Assembly (NCBI GenBank): GCA_036273515.1
Contig: DASUHM010000049.1
Span: forward strand, 963-64,962
Length of the DNA: 64,000 nucleotides
DNA from: Gaiellales bacterium
GTDB lineage: Bacteria; Actinomycetota; Thermoleophilia; Gaiellales; JAICJC01
Direction of reading: 5' to 3'
The notes under the pieces are model-generated. The model was not told where the DNA came from. It was given only the letters and a program-made list of their open reading frames with translations, and did not search any database. The first letter of the stretch is position 1, and each line of letters starts with the position of its first letter. Positions 13,134 to 58,256 of this stretch are shown piece by piece. The translations under genes were made by a program, and so were the position numbers.

Positions 13134-13200
13134 CCGGGGTCTGACCCCGAACGGAACTGCAACGGAAGCGTCACGGCCGCCGTTCGGGGTCTGACCCCGG
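13134..13200. repeat. Inverted repeat: two 21-nt arms built on GGGGTCTGACCCCGAACGG, 25-nt spacer
   Basis: Arm 13134-13154 is CCGGGGTCTGACCCCGAACGG. Arm 13180-13200 is CCGTTCGGGGTCTGACCCCGG. They are complementary except at the central base. The same core recurs at 46282 and 58204. Confidence 0.8.
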
Positions 13201-41804: not shown

Positions 41805-43147
41805 CGCTGGCCGACCGGAGGCTGCACATGATCGGGATCGGCGGCGCCGGCATGTCGGCGTTGGCCGTCGTCGCATACGCCTGGGGCGCCGACGTGTCGG
41901 GGTGCGACCGCACGCCGTCGGAGTACTCGCTGCGCCTGCGCCGGTTCGGCATCGACGTCTCGGAGGGGCACGATCGCGGCCACCTCGAGCCCGGCATGGA
42001 GGTGGTCGTCTCCTCGGCCGTGCCCGACGAGCTCGACGAGCTGGCCGCGGCGTCCGAGCTCGGGCTGCGCGTGCTGCACCGGGGCGAGCTGCTGGCCCAG
42101 CTGGTGGCCGAGCGGCGCTCGATCTGCGTCGCGGGCGCGCACGGGAAGACGACGACGACGGCGATGCTCGCCTTCGCGGCCGACCGGATCGGGCTCGATC
42201 CGACCTGGCTCGTCGGCGGCGAGGTGCCGCAGCTCGGCGGCAATGCCGGACCGGGCGGGGGAGACCTGCTGATCGCGGAGGGGGACGAGTCCGACGGCAG
42301 CTGCGCGCTCCTGCGCCCGCGCGTCGCCGTGATCACGAACGTCGACCTCGATCACCACGCTCGCTACGCGTCGGTGCACGACGTCGAGCGCCTGTTCGCC
42401 GAGTGGGTCGCGCACGTGCCCGCGGACGGGGCGGTGGTGCTCGGCGACGGCGTCGCCCTGCCGGCCGGGGCGGCGCCCGTTGTGCGGTTCGGCTTCGACG
42501 AGGGCGCCAATTGGCATATCAGCGGCTTCCACAGCGGCCCGGAGGGGTCGCGGTTCTGGCTCTCGGTGCCCGACGAGCTCCCGGTCGACGTCACCCTGCG
42601 GGTGCCCGGCGCCCACAACGCTCGCAATGCCGCCGGCGCGATCGCCGCCCTGGCCGCGGCCGGGGCGAGCGCGGCCGATGCGGCCGCGGCGCTCGCCGAG
42701 TTCACCGGCGTCGGCCGCCGTTTCGAGGTGCGCGGGCGGGTCGCCGGGGCGACCGTCGTCGACGACTACGCGCACAACCCGGCCAAGGTCGCCGCCGCCA
42801 TCGACGCCGCCCGCACGCACGCGCCGGCACGCGTGGTGGTCTGCTTCCAGCCCCACCTCTACTCACGCACGGCCGCGTCGGCGCACGAGTTCGGCGGCGC
42901 GCTGGCCGGCGCCGACGAGGTGGTCGTCACCGAGATCTACGCCGCCCGCGAGCGGCCCCAGCCGGGGGTGACCGCGAAGCTCGTCGTCGACGCCCTGGCG
43001 GAGCGGCGGCCGGGGATGCCGCTCGCCTACATGCCGGGACTGGGCGACGCCGCCGCCTACCTGCGCGGGCGCGTGCGCGAGGGCGACCTCGTCCTCACCG
43101 TCGGCGCGGGCGATGTCCGCAGCGTGGGCGACGAGCTGCTGCGATGA
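41801..43147 (+). CDS. murC: UDP-MurNAc:L-Ala ligase
   Basis: ATGA overlap. GIGGAGMSALA and AGAHGKTTTT motifs. Confidence 0.9.
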   Translation: MTLADRRLHMIGIGGAGMSALAVVAYAWGADVSGCDRTPSEYSLRLRRFGIDVSEGHDRGHLEPGMEVVVSSAVPDELDELAAASELGLRVLHRGELLAQLVAERRSICVAGAHGKTTTTAMLAFAADRIGLDPTWLVGGEVPQLGGNAGPGGGDLLIAEGDESDGSCALLRPRVAVITNVDLDHHARYASVHDVERLFAEWVAHVPADGAVVLGDGVALPAGAAPVVRFGFDEGANWHISGFHSGPEGSRFWLSVPDELPVDVTLRVPGAHNARNAAGAIAALAAAGASAADAAAALAEFTGVGRRFEVRGRVAGATVVDDYAHNPAKVAAAIDAARTHAPARVVVCFQPHLYSRTAASAHEFGGALAGADEVVVTEIYAARERPQPGVTAKLVVDALAERRPGMPLAYMPGLGDAAAYLRGRVREGDLVLTVGAGDVRSVGDELLR

Positions 43148-44037
43148 GCGCCGTTCCCGCCTGCGTCGAGCCGGACTACCCGGTGTCGCGGCTGACCACG
43201 GTCGGCACGGGCGGCCGGGCGCGCTTTCTTGCCCGGCCCGGCACCGGCGCCGAGCTGGCCGGGGTGCTGAGCTGGGCCGATGCGGGCGCGCTCGACGTGG
43301 CCGTGGTCGGGCTCGGCTCGAACCTGCTGGTCGCCGACGAGGGCTACGACGGCGTCGTCCTGCGCCTGGCCGGCGGCCTCGCCCGGATCGAGCGCGACGG
43401 CGAGCGGGTCGTGTGCGGCGGCGGCGCCTCGCTGGCCGCCGTCGTGAAGCGGGCGACCGGCTGGGGCCTCTCCGGCATCGAGTTCGGATGCGCCATCCCG
43501 GGCACGGCCGGCGGCGCGGTGCGGATGAACGCGGGCGCGTACGGCGGCGAGCTGCGTGACGTGCTCGACAGGGCGGTGGTGGTCGGCGCCGGCGGCGAGC
43601 GGGCCGGCGGGCCGGACGAGCTCGGCATGCGCTACCGGCACTCGAACGTCGGGCCGCGCGAGGTCGTCGCCGAGGCGGTGCTGCGGCTGCGGCCCGACGA
43701 CACGGAGCGGATCCGGGCGACCGTGGCCGACATGCAGCGGCGCCGGCGCGAGGCCCAGCCGGCCAAGGTGCGCACGTTCGGGTCGGTGTGGAAGAACCCG
43801 GGCGGCGACCTGTCCGCCGGGCGCATCCTCGAGGAGTGCGGGCTCAAGGGCTTCACGGCCGGCGGCGCCCGCATCTCGCCGGTGCACGCGAACTTCATCG
43901 AGAACACGGGCGATGCTCGCTCCGCCGACGTGATCGCGCTGATGCAGGAGGCGCGGCGGCGGGCCCGCGAGCGCTTCGGCGTGGAGCTCGAGCACGAGGT
44001 GCAGATGCTCGGGCCGATCGGGCTTTCAGATGGTTGA
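43144..44037 (+). CDS. murB: UDP-N-acetylenolpyruvoylglucosamine reductase
   Basis: ATGA overlap. FAD-binding GLGSNLLV. C-terminal MurB domain (GSVWKNP, ISPVHANF). The last codons and stop lie inside the repeat at 44028. Confidence 0.9.
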   Translation: MSAVPACVEPDYPVSRLTTVGTGGRARFLARPGTGAELAGVLSWADAGALDVAVVGLGSNLLVADEGYDGVVLRLAGGLARIERDGERVVCGGGASLAAVVKRATGWGLSGIEFGCAIPGTAGGAVRMNAGAYGGELRDVLDRAVVVGAGGERAGGPDELGMRYRHSNVGPREVVAEAVLRLRPDDTERIRATVADMQRRRREAQPAKVRTFGSVWKNPGGDLSAGRILEECGLKGFTAGGARISPVHANFIENTGDARSADVIALMQEARRRARERFGVELEHEVQMLGPIGLSDG

Positions 44038-44132
44038 TCGGCAGCTCCCGTGACAGCCGCAGCCCACGAGCGCCCCGAACGCCCGCCAACAGCCTGACGT
44101 CCGGGCGCGCGCGAGCTGCCGATCAACCATCT
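44028..44132 (-). mobile_element. 105-bp MITE-like element (truncated family member) between murB and ftsQ
   Basis: Perfect 20-bp terminal inverted repeats, AGATGGTTGATCGGCAGCTC (44028-44047) and its complement (44113-44132). The interior matches elements at 56915 and 51550 in reverse orientation, including an exact 17-mer at 44086-44102 = revcomp of 56944-56960. Confidence 0.6.
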
Positions 44133-44180
44133 TGGCGCCTGCCTGATCCGGCAGGATCCATCCGCCGTCCGGCGAACTGG

Positions 44181-48770: not shown

Positions 48771-50104
48771 GCTTCACCTCGCTGACCGACGAGGACCGCG
48801 CGGCGATGCTGGCCGCGATCGGCGTCGAGTCGGTCGCAGACCTCTTCGCCGAGATCCCGGCCGCCGTCCGCCTCGACCGGCCGCTGCGGGTCGACCGGGC
48901 GCTGACCGAGGGCGAGCTGTGGGCGCATCTGTGCGAGCTGGCCGGACGCAACTCGGGCACGGGCAGCGAGCTCTCGTTCCTCGGCGCCGGGGTGTACGAC
49001 CACTACGTGCCGGCCGTCGTCGACGCGGTCATGCAGCGCGGCGAGCTGCTCACGGCCTACACGCCGTACCAGCCGGAGATGAGCCAGGGCACGCTGCAGG
49101 CGATCTTCGAGTATCAGACCGCGATCTGCGAGCTGACCGGGATGGACGTGTCGAACGCCTCCGGCTACGACGGGACGACCGTCGCCGCCGACGCCTGCTA
49201 CGTCGCCAAGCAGACGACCGGCCGGACGAAGGTCGTCGTCGCCCAGACGCTCAACCCGCAGGTGCGCCAGGTGGTGCGCACGTTCGCGCCCGGCTTCGGG
49301 ATGGAGGTCGTCGAGGTGCCGCACACCGGCGGGACCACCGATCCCGACCGCTTCGGCGCCGCCTGCGCCGACGCCGCCTGCGCGATCTTCCCGCAGCCGA
49401 ACTTCTTCGGCTGCCTCGAGCCGGCGCCGGAGCTGGCCGCCGCCGCGTCTGCCGCGGGCGCGCTCGCGATCGCGCACGTCGACCTGATGACGCTCGGCGT
49501 GCTCGAGGCGCCCGGCGCATACGGCTGTGCGCTCGCCATCGGCGAGGGCCAGTCGGCCGGGAACCACATGTCCTACGGCGGCCCGCACTTCGGCTTCCTC
49601 GCGGCCCGGTCGGACTACATCCGCAAGCTGCCGGGCAGGATCGTCGGCGAGACGCATGACCACGACGGCCGCCGCGGGTTCGTGCTCACGCTGCAGACGC
49701 GCGAGCAGCACATCCGCCGCGAGAAGGCGACGTCGAACATCACCACCAACCAGACGCTGCTGGCGGTGGCGGGCCTGATCTACCTGAGCTGGCTCGGCCC
49801 TCAGGGGCTGGGCGACGTCGGCCGGGCCTGCCTGTCGCTGACCGAGCATGCGAAGCGGCGGCTGGGGCTGCCGCTCGCGTTCGACCGGCCAACGTTCCAG
49901 GAGTTCGCCGTGCGCCTGAGCCGGCCGGCGCGCGACGTGATCCGCGACGCGCGCAAGCTGGGCGTCCACCCCGGCTACGCGCTCGGCCGCGAGTACGAGG
50001 GGATGGACGACGTCCTGCTCGTGTGCCTGACCGAGAAGCGCACGGCGGCCGACATCGACCGGCTTGCCGAGGTCTTACGCCAGGTGCAGGCGGTGGCGGC
50101 ATGA
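48767..50104 (+). CDS. gcvPA: Glycine dehydrogenase (decarboxylating) subunit 1
   Basis: GTGA overlap. [12 protein letters not shown] and [11 protein letters not shown] motifs of the split P protein. Confidence 0.9.
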
Positions 50105-51558
50105 AGCTCATCTACGAGAAGTCGCGCGCGGGCCGGCGGGCGGGCCGCATCCCCGATCCGGGCGTCCAGGTCGCCGAGGTGCCGGCGGAGCTGGCGCGCA
50201 CCACCCCGCCGCGGTTGCCGGAGCTGGCCGAGCCTGAGCTCGTGCGCCACTACACCGAGCTCTCGACGCGGACGTTCGGGATCGACACGGGCTTCTACCC
50301 GCTCGGCTCCTGCACGATGAAGTACAACCCGCGCATCAACGAGCGTGCGGTCGGCCTGCCCGGCTTCGCCGACCTGCACCCCCACCAGGAGGACGAGGGC
50401 GCCCAGGGCGCGCTCGAGCTGATGTGGCGGCTGCAGGAGATGCTGGCCGAGGTGGTCGGCCTCGATGCGGTCACGCTCCAGCCGGCAGCCGGGTCGCAGG
50501 GCGAGCTGACCGGCCTCACGCTCATGCGGGCCCACTTCGCGGACCGCGGCGAGGACCGCACGGAGGTGATCATCCCCGACACCGCCCACGGCACCAACCC
50601 GGCCAGCGTCGCGATGGCGGGCTACACGCTCGTGCGCGTGAAGACCGACGTGCGCGGCAACGTCGACGTCGACGACCTGCGCGGCAAGGTGGGGGAGCAC
50701 ACGGCGGGGCTCATGCTGACCAACCCGTCGACGCTCGGCCTGTTCGAGGAGCGGATCTCCGAGATCGCCGACATCTTCCACTCGGCCGGCGCGCTCCTCT
50801 ACTACGACGGCGCCAACCTGAACGCCGTGTGCGGCATCTCCCGGCCGGGCGACATGGGCTTCGACATCGTCCACTACAACCTGCACAAGACGTTCTCGCA
50901 GCCGCACGGCGGCGGCGGGCCGGGCGGCGGGCCGGTGGCAGTGCGGCGCGACCTCGAGCAGTTCCTGCCGGTGCCGGTGGTCGTCCGCGACGGCGACACT
51001 TTCCGGCTCGAGAGCGACCGGCCGAAGACGATCGGCAAGGTGCGCGGGTTCGGCGGGCCGTTCGGCGTCTTCGTGCGCGCCTACGCGTTCATGCGCATGT
51101 GGGGGCCGGGCCTGCGCGACATGTCCGAGGTGGCCGTCCTGAACGCGAACTACGTGCTGGCGCGGCTGAAGGGCGCATACGACCTGCCCGTCGACCGCCA
51201 CTGCATGCACGAGTTCGTCGTCTCGGCCCGCACCCTCAAACGCGAGCACGGGATCACGGCGCTCGACGTCGCCAAGCGGCTGATGGACCACGGGTTCCAC
51301 CCGCCCACGATCTACTTCCCCCTGATCGTGTCCGAGGCGCTCATGATCGAGCCGACCGAGACGGAGACGCGCGAGACGCTCGACGCGTTCTGCGAGGCGA
51401 TGCTCGCGATCGCGCAGGAGGCCGGCGACGATCCGCAGATGCTGAAGGACGCGCCGCACACGCGGCCGGTGACCCGGCTCGACGAGGCCGAGGCGGCCAA
51501 GCGCCTGCTCGTACGCTACGGGTTCGACGAGCACCCGACGTCCGGGCTAGATGAATGA
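50101..51558 (+). CDS. gcvPB: Glycine dehydrogenase (decarboxylating) subunit 2
   Basis: ATGA overlap. [11 protein letters not shown], and the PLP-lysine context [16 protein letters not shown]. The last codons and stop lie inside the repeat at 51550. Confidence 0.9.
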
Positions 51559-51748
51559 TCCCACACCTCTGCGCACCTGGGCGCCCGGCTGTGAGGGGTG
51601 TTCGGCGTGCTGGTGGGGCTGCGGCTGCGAACCGTCGCATCGCTGTGTCCTCGGTCGCGCCCATACAACCAGGTATGAGCGCTCCCTGCGTCCTCGCGCT
51701 GCCCGGTTCGCAGCCGCCCAGGACACACCGGGCGTGGAATCAGTCATC
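51550..51748 (+). mobile_element. 199-bp MITE-like element filling the gcvPB-HAD intergenic gap
   Basis: Terminal inverted repeats GATGAATGATCCCAC (51550-51564) and GTGGAATCAGTCATC (51734-51748), 13 of 15 complementary. Flanked by TA on both sides. Collinear similarity to 56915-57112. Confidence 0.6.
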
Positions 51749-51751
51749 TAG

Positions 51752-52477
51752 GTGCTGCGCGCCGCCGCGTTCGACTACCGCGACACGCTCGCGGAATTCC
51801 GCTGGGACGAACGCCTGTGGCGCCGCGGCGTCGAGGCGCTGGTCGTTGCGGCCGGCGGCGATGCGCGTGCGGCCGGCCGCGTCGGGGAGGGGCTGCGGCG
51901 CCGCTTCGCCCGCACGGACGGCGACCCGGTCGAGCTCGACTATCCCGCCGCGGTGGCGGCGGCGCTGCGCGACTTCGGGATCGACGCGGCGCCCGCCGCC
52001 GTGCGCCGCGGGATCGAGGCGGAGTACCGCATCTGGGCGCCGGCCCGGCACGTGCATCCGGACACGCCGGCCCTGCTCGACGGCGTGCGCGCGCTCGGCC
52101 TGCGATCGGCCGTCGCGGCGAACGCCTTCGACCCGCCCGGGCTCTTCCGCGCCGACCTCGCAGCGCAGGGGATCGGGGGCCGCGTCGACGCCGTCGTGCT
52201 CTCCTGCGAGGTGGGCGTGCGCAAGCCGGATCCGCGCTTCTTCGCGGCTGTCTCGAACGCGCTTGGCGTCGACCCGGGCGAGGCCGTGTTCGTGGGCGAC
52301 AGCGTGCGCGACGACGTGCTCGGGGCCGCCGCCGTGGGCATGCGGACCTGCCTCGCGACCTGGTACCGGCAGGATCCGGAAGCCGCGGGAAGGGGTGTGA
52401 CGACGGGCACAGAACCCCTGCAAGTGGTGGAGATTCTCGAGGGGATTGTCGAATCCGGACGGGCCGGTAAGATCTGA
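51752..52477 (+). CDS. HAD-superfamily hydrolase
   Basis: FDYRDTL (motif I region), S/T motif II, C-terminal K...GDS..DD motif (VFVGDSVRDDVLGA). Confidence 0.7.
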   Translation: MLRAAAFDYRDTLAEFRWDERLWRRGVEALVVAAGGDARAAGRVGEGLRRRFARTDGDPVELDYPAAVAAALRDFGIDAAPAAVRRGIEAEYRIWAPARHVHPDTPALLDGVRALGLRSAVAANAFDPPGLFRADLAAQGIGGRVDAVVLSCEVGVRKPDPRFFAAVSNALGVDPGEAVFVGDSVRDDVLGAAAVGMRTCLATWYRQDPEAAGRGVTTGTEPLQVVEILEGIVESGRAGKI

Positions 52478-54999: not shown

Positions 55000-55477
55000 G
55001 TGGACGTGACCTGGACGTCGCGGAACGGTCTGCACTGTGACCTGGAGAGCGTGTCCAGGACAGGCGCCGAGGCCAACCTGTACAGCTACGCCGCGGCTAT
55101 CAGCGCCGACGGCCGCTACGTGGTGTTCAACTCCGGCGCCACCAACCTGGTGCCCCACGACACCAACCCGCGCACCGACGCGTTCGTGCGCGACCGCCGC
55201 GCCGGGTGACGACTCGCATCAGCGTCTCCACGACCGGGGCCCAGGCGCAGGCGCGGTCGCCAGGCCAACGCGGAATGCAGCGCACCTCCGGCTGACCCGC
55301 CACGGCCGCGACGTCGTCTTCTCCTCGCCCGCCTCGACGCTGGTCTCCGGCGATACCAACGGCCAGACACCAGTCTTCTCCTCGTGGGCCGGCAACCTGG
55401 TGTCGAACGACCGCAGCCCGGGCCCGGAGGTGTTCGTGCGCGATCGGACCTGCCCTGAGGGATTCACTCTAGACTGA
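55000..55477 (+). pseudogene. Decayed PD40/TolB-like beta-propeller repeat gene remnant
   Basis: Repeat units ISADGRYVVFNSGATNLVPHDTNPRTDAFVRDR, TTRISVSTTGAQAQA, and GRDVVFSSPASTLVSGDTNGQ...VFVRDR occur in three different frames with stops between them. No signal peptide or credible start. Confidence 0.55.
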
Positions 55478-55483
55478 CCGGCC

Positions 55484-56923
55484 GTGTCGTCCCGTCCCGT
55501 CTGCGTCCGCATGCCGCCCAGCCCGACCGGGCTCTTCCACGTCGGCACGGTGCGCACGATGCTCTTCAACTGGCTCTTCGCCCGCGGCCGCGGCGGCAGG
55601 GTCGTGCTGCGGTTCGAGGACACGGACGTCGCCCGCTCCACCGAGGCCGCCGTCGAGCACGCCGAGGCGGTGCTGCGCTGGCTCGGGATCGACTGGGACG
55701 ACGGGCCCTACCGGCAGACGCAGCGCTACGACCTCTACCGGGCCGCCGCCGAGGACCTGATCGCGCACGGCAAGGCCTACCGCTGCTACTGCACCGAGGC
55801 CGAGCTGGCCGAGGAGCGAGCCCGCCGCCAGGCCGACGGCCGGCCGCTGATCTACAGCGGCCGCTGCCGGCACGCAGCGGCGGCCGAGCTCGAGGCGCTC
55901 GCCGCGGAGGGCCGGCCCGCGGTCGTGCGCCTGGCCCTGCCGGCGTCCGGCACCACCGTCATCGAGGACGTCGTCCACGGCACGGTCGAGTGGGACAACG
56001 CCCTCCAGGGCGACCACGTGATCCTGCGGTCGGACGGGTCGCCGACCTATCAGTTCGCGAACCCGTTCGACGACATCGCCATGGGCGTGACCTACGTGAT
56101 CCGCGGCGAGGACCTGATGCCGTCGACGCCGCGCCAGCTGGCGCTCTACCGCGCGCTCGACGCCCCGGAGCCGGTCTTCGCCCACCTGCCCATGGTGCTC
56201 GGGCCGGACAAGCGCAAGCTCTCGAAGCGGCACGGCGCGATCTCGGTCGAGGAATTCCGCGACGCGGGCGTGATCGCGGATGCGCTCGTGAACTACCTGG
56301 CGCTCGTCGGCTGGAGCTTCGACGACCACACGAACTTCATGACGCGGCCCGAGCTGATCGAGCGGTTCACGCTCGAGCGGGTGACCAAGAGCCCGGGCGT
56401 GTTCGACCCGGAGAAGCTCGAGTGGCTGAACGGCGAGCACCTGCGCGCGCTTGCGCCCGAGACGTTCGTGAAGGAGCTCCAGGACTACCTCGTCTCCGCG
56501 GCCTCGCCGCTGGCCGACCAGCCGGAGCAGGTTGCCGAGGCGGCGCCGCTCGTGCAGGAGAAGATGCGCGTGCTGGGCCAGTTCCCGCGCCTCGCCGGGT
56601 TCCTGTTCGGCCCGCCGGAGCGCGATCCGGCCGCCTGGGAGCGGGTGGGCAAGGACGAGCGCGCGCCGGCGTCCCTGCGGGCCGCCCGCGAGGCGCTCGC
56701 CGAGGTCGATCCGTGGACGGCCGAGGCGATCGAAGCGGCCCTGCACGCCGCCTGCGAGCGGCAGGGCGTGAAGCCGCGCGCGCTCTTCATGCCGGTGCGG
56801 GTCGCGCTCACCGGGAGCACCGTCTCGCCGGGGCTGTACGAGAGCCTGGAGCTGGTGGGCCGGGACGAATCGCTCGCCCGGCTCGACGCTGCGCTCGCCG
56901 ATCTCCCCGCCGTCGATGATTGA
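55484..56923 (+). CDS. gltX: Glutamate--tRNA ligase
   Basis: Class I motifs: a HIGH-type PSPTGLFHVG and a KMSKS-type KLSKRHG. The last codons and stop lie in the repeat at 56915. Confidence 0.9.
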   Translation: MSSRPVCVRMPPSPTGLFHVGTVRTMLFNWLFARGRGGRVVLRFEDTDVARSTEAAVEHAEAVLRWLGIDWDDGPYRQTQRYDLYRAAAEDLIAHGKAYRCYCTEAELAEERARRQADGRPLIYSGRCRHAAAAELEALAAEGRPAVVRLALPASGTTVIEDVVHGTVEWDNALQGDHVILRSDGSPTYQFANPFDDIAMGVTYVIRGEDLMPSTPRQLALYRALDAPEPVFAHLPMVLGPDKRKLSKRHGAISVEEFRDAGVIADALVNYLALVGWSFDDHTNFMTRPELIERFTLERVTKSPGVFDPEKLEWLNGEHLRALAPETFVKELQDYLVSAASPLADQPEQVAEAAPLVQEKMRVLGQFPRLAGFLFGPPERDPAAWERVGKDERAPASLRAAREALAEVDPWTAEAIEAALHAACERQGVKPRALFMPVRVALTGSTVSPGLYESLELVGRDESLARLDAALADLPAVDD

Positions 56924-57112
56924 TTCCACCTCCCCGCGAGCCTGGACGTCAGGCTGTTGGTGCGGGTTCGGACTGTTGGTTGGGGCTGCGCCTCAGCGTC
57001 TGCGTCATCGCAGACGCCTCGGACCGCGGTCAAGCGCATCCACGCTCCCTGCGTCCTTGCGCTGCTCGGTTCGCAACCGCCGAGACCGCACAGGGTCGTG
57101 GAATCGATCATC
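56915..57112 (+). mobile_element. 198-bp MITE-like element downstream of gltX
   Basis: Terminal inverted repeats GATGATTGATTCCAC (56915-56929) and GTGGAATCGATCATC (57098-57112). Internal 9-bp-stem hairpin at 56996-57017. Collinear with 51550-51748. Confidence 0.6.
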
Positions 57113-57164
57113 CAGTGAGTTTGCAGGAATCCGGCCGGGCCCGGCCGAAGGGGGAAGTCCGCCC

Positions 57165-57485
57165 GTGTACGGATCCCTGCATGTCTCCGAGTCGATCACG
57201 CGCCTCTCGGTCGCGGGCGTCGTCCTGTGGGTGAGCCTCACGGCCCTCGTCGCGACGGTCGTCGGCGTCGCCGCGTGGTCGGCCGGGAACGCCACCGCGA
57301 CGCGCTACACGCCTGCCGTCGTGCGCCAGATCCAGGGCCAGGCCTACGTCCGCGGGCTGGCCGCCGGGAGCGAGCGGACGAGCCATGCCGGGAACGGCCG
57401 CAAGCGGATCGACACGCTGCGCAGGAAGAGCTACGAGCGAGGATATTCGGCCGGCTACCGGGCCGGACAGGCGGCCGCACCCTGA
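57165..57485 (+). CDS. Hypothetical membrane-anchored protein
   Basis: GTG at 57165 preceded by GAAGGGGGAAG. One TM helix (LSVAGVVLWVSLTALVATVVGVAAW). Confidence 0.45.
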   Translation: MYGSLHVSESITRLSVAGVVLWVSLTALVATVVGVAAWSAGNATATRYTPAVVRQIQGQAYVRGLAAGSERTSHAGNGRKRIDTLRRKSYERGYSAGYRAGQAAAP

Positions 57486-58194: not shown

Positions 58195-58203
58195 CCGACA
58201 ATC

Positions 58204-58216
58204 GGGGTCAGACCCC
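58204..58216. repeat. GGGGTCAGACCCC palindromic motif copy (extends to CGGGGTCAGACCCCGAACGGG, 58203-58223)
   Basis: Same 19-20 nt as the arms at 13134 and 13180. Lies in a convergent intergenic gap. Followed by GTTGC-N5-GTTGC. Confidence 0.7.
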
Positions 58217-58256
58217 GAACGGGGGCTGTTGCACTCCTGTTGCGAAGTTGTGACGC

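Follow-up and report, generated by a model that had tools for sequence, protein, structure and literature searches.

The window analysed here is a stretch of 64,000 nucleotides from the genome of a Gaiellales bacterium (contig DASUHM010000049.1, positions 963 to 64,962, forward strand). It contains three copies of a repeat, a putative miniature inverted-repeat transposable element (MITE), each at the end of a conserved gene. By close homologues, the open reading frames (ORFs) 41902..44037, 50023..51558 and 55484..56923, all on the plus strand, encode UDP-N-acetylmuramate dehydrogenase (murB), glycine dehydrogenase subunit 2 (gcvPB) and glutamyl-tRNA synthetase (gltX). The original prediction, made from the letters of the window, stated that each of these genes ends at an in-frame TGA that belongs to the repeat, and the ORF list bears this out: the TGA lies within a motif GATGnnTGA, inside GATGGTTGA (44029-44037) for murB, GATGAATGA (51550-51558) for gcvPB and GATGATTGA (56915-56923) for gltX. 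The features of the three sites are the following:

44026..44037, plus strand: junction and element-derived end of murB, TCA GAT GGT TGA (S D G stop), made up of the decayed junction TCA, in place of an expected TA, and of GAT GGT TGA from the inverted repeat
44029..44131, minus strand: copy 1 of the putative MITE, in the murB/ftsQ spacer; internally deleted, about 105 bp, with perfect ends GATGGTTGATCGGCAGCTC / GAGCTGCCGATCAACCATC
44132..44146, plus strand: displaced native 3' end of murB, TTG GCG CCT GCC TGA, now right of the element; its counterpart in the empty allele is GAG GCC CGG GCC TGA
51547..51558, plus strand: left junction of copy 2, CTA GAT GAA TGA, with an extra C (51547), the duplicated TA (51548-51549) and the tail L-D-E
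51550..51748, plus strand: copy 2, at the junction of gcvPB and a HAD-hydrolase gene; 199 bp from GATG to CATC, 87% identical to the family consensus
51749..51754, plus strand: right junction of copy 2, duplicated TA and G (the original TAG), with the GTG of the next gene, of the HAD family, immediately after it; the empty allele has exactly this arrangement
56912..56923, plus strand: left junction of copy 3, GTC GAT GAT TGA (V D D stop), with an extra G, a decayed TA (GTA is kept in the sister locus L003) and the inverted repeat
56915..57112, plus strand: copy 3, downstream of gltX; 198 bp, 76% identical to the family consensus
57113..57118, plus strand: right junction of copy 3, CA (decayed TA), G, then TGA; the present location of the pre-insertion stop region

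A search with the family profile finds exactly these three copies in the window, so the three genes are not a selected subset. Exact matches to the outer motif GATGRWTGAT are likewise confined to them; tolerating a single mismatch raises the number in the window to 11, with 3.7 expected, and 6 of the 11 are the six ends of the three copies. Copies 2 and 3 are about 200 bp long, with inverted ends GATGAWTGATYCCAC and GTGGAATCNNTCATC and an interior common to both. Copy 1, whose inverted ends are perfect over 20 nt, lies in the opposite orientation: it aligns, reversed, with only the first 80 or so nucleotides of the other two, and the profile search matches it to positions 2-81 of the family consensus on the minus strand. 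The predicted RNA folds are stable, with -61.9 kcal/mol for copy 1 (z = -6.95) and -113.5 kcal/mol for copy 3 (z = -6.25), the latter a strong hairpin. A search of the whole window against Rfam 15 is negative at gathering thresholds, and one of copy 2 is negative at E <= 1; the interior of the element has a GGTTCG motif, yet ARAGORN predicts no tRNA-like gene; and no promoter or terminator consensus is seen in or near copies 2 and 3.

The family was collected by scanning reference genomes with a two-ended pattern that fixes the inverted repeats only, and the family counts given here refer to the matches listed. These cover at least 120 loci, nearly all in assemblies of Gaiellales, Solirubrobacterales and other Thermoleophilia, often with several loci per assembly. 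The complete Thermoleophilia genome OY969568.1 is among the carriers. The terminal inverted repeats (TIRs) are about 19-25 bp long and the interior is hairpin-like. Over the 122 copies compared, the pair GATGATTGATTCCACG / CGTGGAATCAATCATC is conserved, and the layout of a canonical copy is C-TA-(GATGATTGATTCCACG...CGTGGAATCAATCATC)-TA-G. Copies measure 187-215 bp, with deleted forms of about 105 bp, a size that leaves no coding capacity for a transposase. The family thus has the size, inverted repeats, copy number, presence/absence polymorphism and target duplication of a MITE. We hold it to be very probably a previously undescribed MITE of about 200 bp from soil Thermoleophilia, a non-autonomous DNA transposon of the IS630/Tc1-mariner-like kind that inserts at the TA of CTAG. 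In the literature searched, the inverted-repeat sequence GATGATTGATTCCACG occurs in no paper, and no paper on Thermoleophilia mentions miniature inverted repeats. The family is undescribed, but this kind of element is already known, and it opens no new mechanism.

A well-conserved consensus of 206 nt is shared by 84 copies. Another 39 of the 123 strict matches have only the inverted repeats in common, around unrelated interiors (for example at loci L004, L007, L013, L021, L025, L026 and L036), with total lengths of 187-215 bp that cluster near 187, 193, 208 and 214 bp. Common ends with unrelated interiors are the usual picture when one transposase serves several MITE subfamilies, and the sequences suggest that several such subfamilies with one set of ends appear here. 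The ends also vary, at the triplet of inverted-repeat positions 5-7 (ATT, GTT, AGT or ATC). In 80 of 122 copies the two ends carry an identical triplet, where the marginal frequencies predict 37.5, so that end variants are symmetric within copies. A few matches, at L018, L022 and L087, lie in assemblies whose labels are not of Thermoleophilia (Streptosporangiaceae for L018, Bifidobacteriaceae for L022). The flanks of L022 and L087 are atypical, reading ccgGATGG...CATCggg followed by another GATGGnTGA. The out-of-class matches could reflect binning contamination, horizontal transfer or a related family.

The sequences that flank the family are strikingly uniform: cTA precedes GATGATTGATTCCACG and TAg follows CGTGGAATCAATCATC. 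On the left, C is found at -3 in 75% of copies, T at -2 in 76% and A at -1 in 95%; on the right, T at +1 in 93%, A at +2 in 83% and G at +3 in 83%; no position further out than ±3 is conserved. Pairs of filled and empty alleles were recovered by flank-joining searches among the fetched loci. The clearest pair opposes cgcagcTA[element]TAGatc at locus L048 to the empty allele cgcagcTAGcgc at L026, which is a clean duplication of TA inside CTAG, and the pairs L104/L101 and L011/L088 are consistent with it. Empty alleles exist for all three sites of the window as well, read in orthologous element-free DNA. Integration at TA with a 2-bp duplication is thus found in the flank consensus, in the allele pairs and in the right junction at gcvPB, the size of the duplication being ambiguous in most copies and the window junctions irregular. 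The preference for CTAG, known from a subset of the family (IS630, IS870), is visible in the flanks and in the occupied stop codons: of 86 ends whose gene stops at the junction TAG, 72 have C before the TAG, whereas only 45% of unoccupied TAG stops do. PMC2170065, and the Tenzen references therein, describe insertion at TA, a 2-bp duplication and a preference for CTAG in the IS630 family, and a transposase of the IS630 type would be the natural candidate here.

At gcvPB, the protein ends in ...HPTSG/E in 119 of 120 homologues and in ...HPTSG-LDE in the window. The site is empty in four relatives, which read gggTAGGTG (L124) or gggTAGTG (L176-L178), more fully tccgggTAGGTG or tccgggTAGTG; the native stop in all four is TAG, and in L124 the call of the HAD gene begins directly after it. 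The stop of gcvPB and the start of the HAD gene are adjacent in L124 (TAGGTG, 2947-2952) and overlap by one base in L176-L178 (TAGTG, about 1747-1751), which is a natural one-base polymorphism of spacing at the very spot where copy 2 is inserted.

At gltX, the site is empty in L001 and L002 and filled in L003. An orthologue that is 97% identical ends in ...DLPA (gccTGAcgagtttgc), and the window protein in ...DLPA-VDD. The window and a 99% identical sister allele read gccG-T(C/A)-[element]-CA-GTGAgtttgc, one base beyond a plain TA duplication. A metagenome scan for alternative alleles of this junction, with the pattern GATCTYCCCGCCN{0,5}GATGATTGATTCC, gave zero matches.

At murB, element-free orthologues end in ...GLEARA/ETPA, and the window protein in ...GL-SDG. 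The empty allele ends in ggg ctc gag gcc cgg gcc TGA; in the window the element follows gggctt, four codons earlier. The orthologous site carries a full-length copy of about 200 bp in L125 and L129, a variant in L128 and a remnant of 35 nt in L127, and it is empty in L126. The murB insertion is old and shared between lineages. The left junction in the other lineages reads cttGA, ctgGA or ctgGG, or has no spacer at all, and the resulting tails are EMVDRQFP, EMVGR, GMVDRQLP and DD, each followed by a stop. The series from full-length to internally deleted copy to remnant, with tails that are specific to each lineage, suggests the neutral decay of an old site. Among public MurB entries (P0241, P0247, P0248, P0256, P0261-P0264, P0269 and P0274; loci L125 and L127-L129), the tails EMVDRQFP, GMVDRQLP, EMVGR, DG and DD are the inverted repeat translated in different frames.

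Comparison with element-free orthologues, which the original prediction had proposed, shows that the last two to three codons and the stop derive from the junction or the element in all three genes. The prediction had also considered that the outermost bases of the repeat might be gene sequence; this is refuted, for every copy has those bases, inverted, at its other end too, and the empty sites lack them. Its argument from chance, that a TGA falls in register in only one frame out of three, is invalid: the canonical end of the element, CTAGATGATTGA, holds TAG, TGA and TGA, one in each frame, and by symmetry does so on both strands. Any incoming frame is thus closed within four codons. Over 244 ends, TAG is present in 76%, the first TGA (+2) in 70% and the second TGA (+6) in 91%; half of the ends (50%) have all three stops, and 89% have at least two.

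It is tempting to see in this end an evolved bidirectional three-frame stop cassette (CTAG-ATGA-TTGA), by which the element would colonise the stops of essential and operon-internal genes, one-base junction errors or indels being harmless and the C-terminal tails of the host free to drift. The drifting tails at murB (SDG, DD, EMVDRQFP and others) are what this idea would cite; it has some chance of being right, though we consider it unlikely.

We then ask where genes end relative to the element across the family. An incoming ORF was counted as coding if it had at least 100 codons, with a GC content at third codon positions (GC3) of at least 0.8 and GC3 > GC1 > GC2. At 226 evaluable ends, the ORF stops at the junction TAG in 86 cases, at the TGA (+6) of GATGnnTGA in 15 and at the TGA (+2) of GATGA in 9; in 37 cases it stops elsewhere, and 79 ends have no incoming ORF. 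Among the 110 stop-associated ends, the shares are therefore 86 for the junction TAG and 24 for a TIR TGA of either kind, 15 of these being TGA (+6). When both flanks are evaluable, 80 of 104 copies (77%) touch a gene stop on at least one end, and 19 touch one on both ends; such double contact means that two convergent genes had stops overlapping in one CTAG. Most stop-associated copies lie between convergent genes. Pfam domains are found in 7 of 8 sampled incoming ORFs, and in five of them the domain extends almost up to the TAG, to within a few residues; these ORFs are real, intact genes.

The survey supports the original prediction in its suspicion that the copies are associated with stop codons, and gives a different account of how. 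A target preference near stops was right in spirit and wrong in naming TGA, the target being the TA of CTAG and so frequently a TAG stop. Selection for insertions that rebuild a stop is also right in spirit; the usual rebuilt stop is TAG, and the TIR TGA serves in offset frames. A stronger form of the first idea, that the element targets TGA or TGA-adjacent sequence and replaces the native TGA by its own, can point to the element's TGA at the end of all three window genes, to element-free gltX orthologues that use TGA, and to the TGA just to the right of copy 3. It is scarcely credible: the native stop of gcvPB is TAG in its four relatives, the family flanks are C-TA...TA-G with a CTAG target in the canonical pair, TAG outnumbers the TIR TGA by 86 to 24 at stop-associated ends, and the murB insertion lies four codons upstream of the native TGA.

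The CTAG target has an unusual distribution in these genomes, whose GC content is about 72%. The 968 kb of loci contain 429 CTAG sites where 2490 would be expected, a depletion of about six-fold, and 108 of 232 unoccupied sites (47%) are gene stops. With CTAG depleted and about half of the remaining sites being TAG stops, the availability of targets alone explains most of the stop association. Occupied sites are nevertheless enriched in gene stops relative to unoccupied ones (odds ratio 3.8, p = 1.5e-7), and the excess would reflect the loss of intragenic insertions by purifying selection. The stop habit of the element is very probably explained as follows. At such a GC content, the surviving CTAG sites are often TAG stops, including overlapping convergent stops, which read CTAG on both strands, and the element is steered there by the availability of targets; insertions inside genes are presumably purged by selection, and those at stops are harmless. 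Beginning with G, the element rebuilds C-TA-G at both junctions.

The same enrichment invites another explanation, that the copies are RNA or DNA elements useful to the host at gene ends (a terminator independent of a U-tract, a stabiliser of mRNA 3' ends, or a hairpin that modulates termination in the manner of repetitive extragenic palindromes (REP)), and that their position is selected for function. Liang, Rudd and Deutscher are said to have described in 2015 an effect of REP on translation, with REP near stop codons in E. coli. Such a role would fit the very stable hairpins (z = -6.3 and -7.0) with a stop codon inside the basal stem, the 77% of copies that adjoin a gene end, most of those between convergent genes, the odds ratio of 3.8 over unoccupied CTAG, and a murB/ftsQ copy that is kept across several species. 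We find it decidedly unlikely. Relatives that are 97-99% identical differ in the presence of copies; the murB site decays by internal deletion, replacement of the interior and reduction to 35 nt; the orientation relative to the terminated gene shows no significant bias (33 vs 22, p = 0.18); 39 of 123 copies have unrelated interiors; and neither an Rfam match nor a terminator- or promoter-like consensus is found. The loss of intragenic insertions, moreover, explains the enrichment equally well.

A further proposal concerns the ATG in the inverted repeat, which overlaps stop codons (GATGA, TAGATG) and could open a translationally coupled mini-ORF, by a TAG-ATG or ATGA overlap, keeping ribosomes coupled to the downstream gene as in mycobacterial interspersed repetitive units (MIRU). 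Co-directional genes flank all three window copies, the ORF list contains long ORFs that start in the repeat, and by manual reading copy 2 contains an open frame of 66 codons from ATG to the right-hand TAG, which adjoins the GTG of the next gene. However, open frames as long as this are common at 72% GC, and the frame of gcvPB does not feed the one in copy 2; element lengths show no bias towards multiples of three; both orientations occur; and most stop-associated copies are between convergent genes. We regard this proposal as extremely improbable. As a matter of observation, the ATG of the left inverted repeat opens ORFs 56916..57485 and 51555..52400 on the plus strand, of 189 and 281 amino acids, which run into the next gene in the wrong frame and are likely to be mis-called as genes.

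The three window genes end at the TGA, not the TAG, because they are out of register with the TAG: by one extra base at gcvPB, where the extra C puts the junction TAG (51548-51550) out of frame, by one extra base at gltX, and by a decayed junction at murB. The TIR TGA of the second frame then serves as the stop; in each case this adds or replaces two to three residues of the host protein, and these tails are presumably neutral. Offset-frame ends occur at L012, L042, L071, L085, L096 and L108, among other loci. Offset ends with an intact CTA have G as the preceding base in 7 of 7 cases, and six canonical in-frame insertions are found at GTAG. A GTAG stop with a C added would have this appearance, and at gcvPB gggTAG has demonstrably become gggCTAG. 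A sharper form of the stop-cassette idea would have the integration reaction itself, acting at imperfect (GTAG) targets, make the one-base offsets; the 7 of 7 preceding G and the change at gcvPB both point in this direction. Two causes are candidates: integration that is imprecise at imperfect targets, and later indels rendered neutral by the backup stops. One-base anomalies of the first kind are on record for ISY100 (PMC2170065), where 3 of 39 products of in vitro transposition kept TA at one junction and a lone A at the other. A co-directional gene comes next at 7 of 13 offset ends and at 18 of 77 TAG ends, counts that include the window copies and stand without a formal test.

Other sources of the offsets were tried and discarded. 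Ordinary insertions a few codons inside genes are rejected for most offset ends, since their empty sites, once reconstructed, show neither an in-frame stop close by nor a coding signal downstream; murB is the exception. Templated correction of a quasi-palindrome would supply the extra base at gcvPB, but does not fit gltX or L012. A duplication of 3 or 4 bp does not remove the extra base at gcvPB. An avoidance of TAG in this genome is rejected as well, for TAG closes about 19 of 70 genes predicted in the window.

Several observations weigh against the reading of the element as a TA-duplicating MITE of the IS630 type. A clean TA duplication is found at none of the three window junctions: gcvPB reads tccgggC-TA-[element]-TA-GGTG, exact on the right and with one extra C on the left; the flank of gltX is not simply derivable from its empty alleles, where the stop is TGA and TA is absent altogether, and it has an extra G; and the flanks of the murB copy are of the GA/TT type. 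The window is also atypical in that 3 of 3 copies use TGA (+6), as against some 12-14% of stop-associated ends in the family. Across the family, the inner flanks (A at -1 and T at +1, about 94%) are more conserved than the outer ones (about 76-83%), which a plain 2-bp duplication does not predict. As the element ends in G...C and the target is palindromic, duplications of 0, 2 and 4 bp are inseparable in most copies. The survey itself relies on heuristic gene calls and covers full-length copies that fit the strict two-ended pattern. Nor did an autonomous partner turn up: the 968 kb of loci contain no pairs of inverted repeats more than 260 bp apart, and neither the window nor the fetched loci contain a candidate gene for an IS630-type transposase. 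In viral contigs, 46 single inverted-repeat matches were seen, by estimate about the number due to chance, none with a partner repeat, and a plasmid search for the inverted repeat gave no match. Consequently, the assignment to IS630 draws on the target and the duplication.

These points leave room for a MITE of the same kind that is mobilised by the IS5 family (IS5, IS427 or ISL2-type, with CTAG or YTAR targets and duplications of 2-4 bp). A subgroup of IS5 targets YTAR. The inseparable 2-bp and 4-bp duplications, and the lack of an IS630 transposase with these ends in the loci and viral contigs scanned, would both suit it. It is quite unlikely, however, in the light of the junctions that can discriminate: in the non-palindromic pair L104/L101 only TA is common to both junctions, and the GTAG target at gcvPB gives TA...TA, not GTAG...GTAG. 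Insertion at TA in CTAG is, besides, a documented behaviour of IS630 (PMC2170065).

An element of the IS630 type can be compared with several known systems. Correia elements of Neisseria, and other bacterial MITEs that duplicate TA, are about 100-200 bp long, with inverted repeats and TA duplication; Correia elements also have internally deleted short variants, give hairpin transcripts and lie near genes. The family described here resembles them in all these respects. Its sequence is unrelated, however; promoters, integration host factor (IHF) sites and RNase III processing are known from the Correia elements, whose AT-rich hosts are not known to funnel insertions onto stop codons. REP and bacterial interspersed mosaic elements (BIME) are also hairpin repeats that lie just downstream of stop codons or overlap them. 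They are palindromes of 20-40 nt, without target duplication and linked to REP-associated tyrosine transposases (RAYT) of the HUH type, whereas the present unit is about 200 bp long with inverted repeats and a TA duplication, and falls outside that class. MIRU share with the element an actinobacterial, intergenic setting and ends that overlap stop or start codons of operon genes. They are tandem direct repeats in fixed orientation, with a small ORF and without inverted repeats or duplication; the copies here are single units in both orientations, with no multiple-of-three bias in length, and are not MIRU.

The closest relatives in behaviour are IS630/Tc1-mariner elements and their MITEs (IS630, ISY100), with which the family has in common the terminal inverted repeats, integration at TA with duplication, a preference for TA within CTAG and occasional one-base anomalies at junctions. 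It differs from them in its Thermoleophilia hosts, its three-frame stop end and the lack of a matching transposase in what was searched. The closest conceptual precedents are IS870 of Agrobacterium vitis and ISMt1 of Mycobacterium tuberculosis, in which, according to PMC13630536 citing Fournier et al. 1993, the TAG of the CTAG target is used as a stop codon. The element exploits the same TAG inside its target. In IS870 and ISMt1 the TAG ends the transposase ORF of the element itself, whereas here a rebuilt TAG or a TIR TGA ends a gene of the host.

The element matters in the first place for annotation: it explains odd C-terminal tails of two to eight residues on conserved proteins, public MurB entries included, and long spurious ORFs that start at the ATG of the inverted repeat. 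It also illustrates that a plain rule for the target (TA in CTAG) can, through base composition, take on the look of homing to stop codons, and that insertions become tolerable, even at murB, gcvPB and gltX, when each frame of the transposon end has a stop. Being abundant, and polymorphic between near-identical soil Thermoleophilia, the family might be used to tell strains apart, and could help to trace an active IS630-like transposase in a lineage that is uncultured.

Two other repeats were seen in the window. A direct repeat of 74 nt upstream of gltX (55123-55196 and 55373-55446, 250 nt apart and 73% identical) is apparently inside a coding region, and is probably a repeated protein module. 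A second short intergenic repeat, unrelated to the element and with the palindromic core GGGGTCTGACCCCGAACGG, occurs at 13136-13155, 13186-13200 and 58203-58222: the two copies at about 13.1 kb are 50 nt apart, and the copy at 58.2 kb, which is inverted, comes just after a TAA stop.

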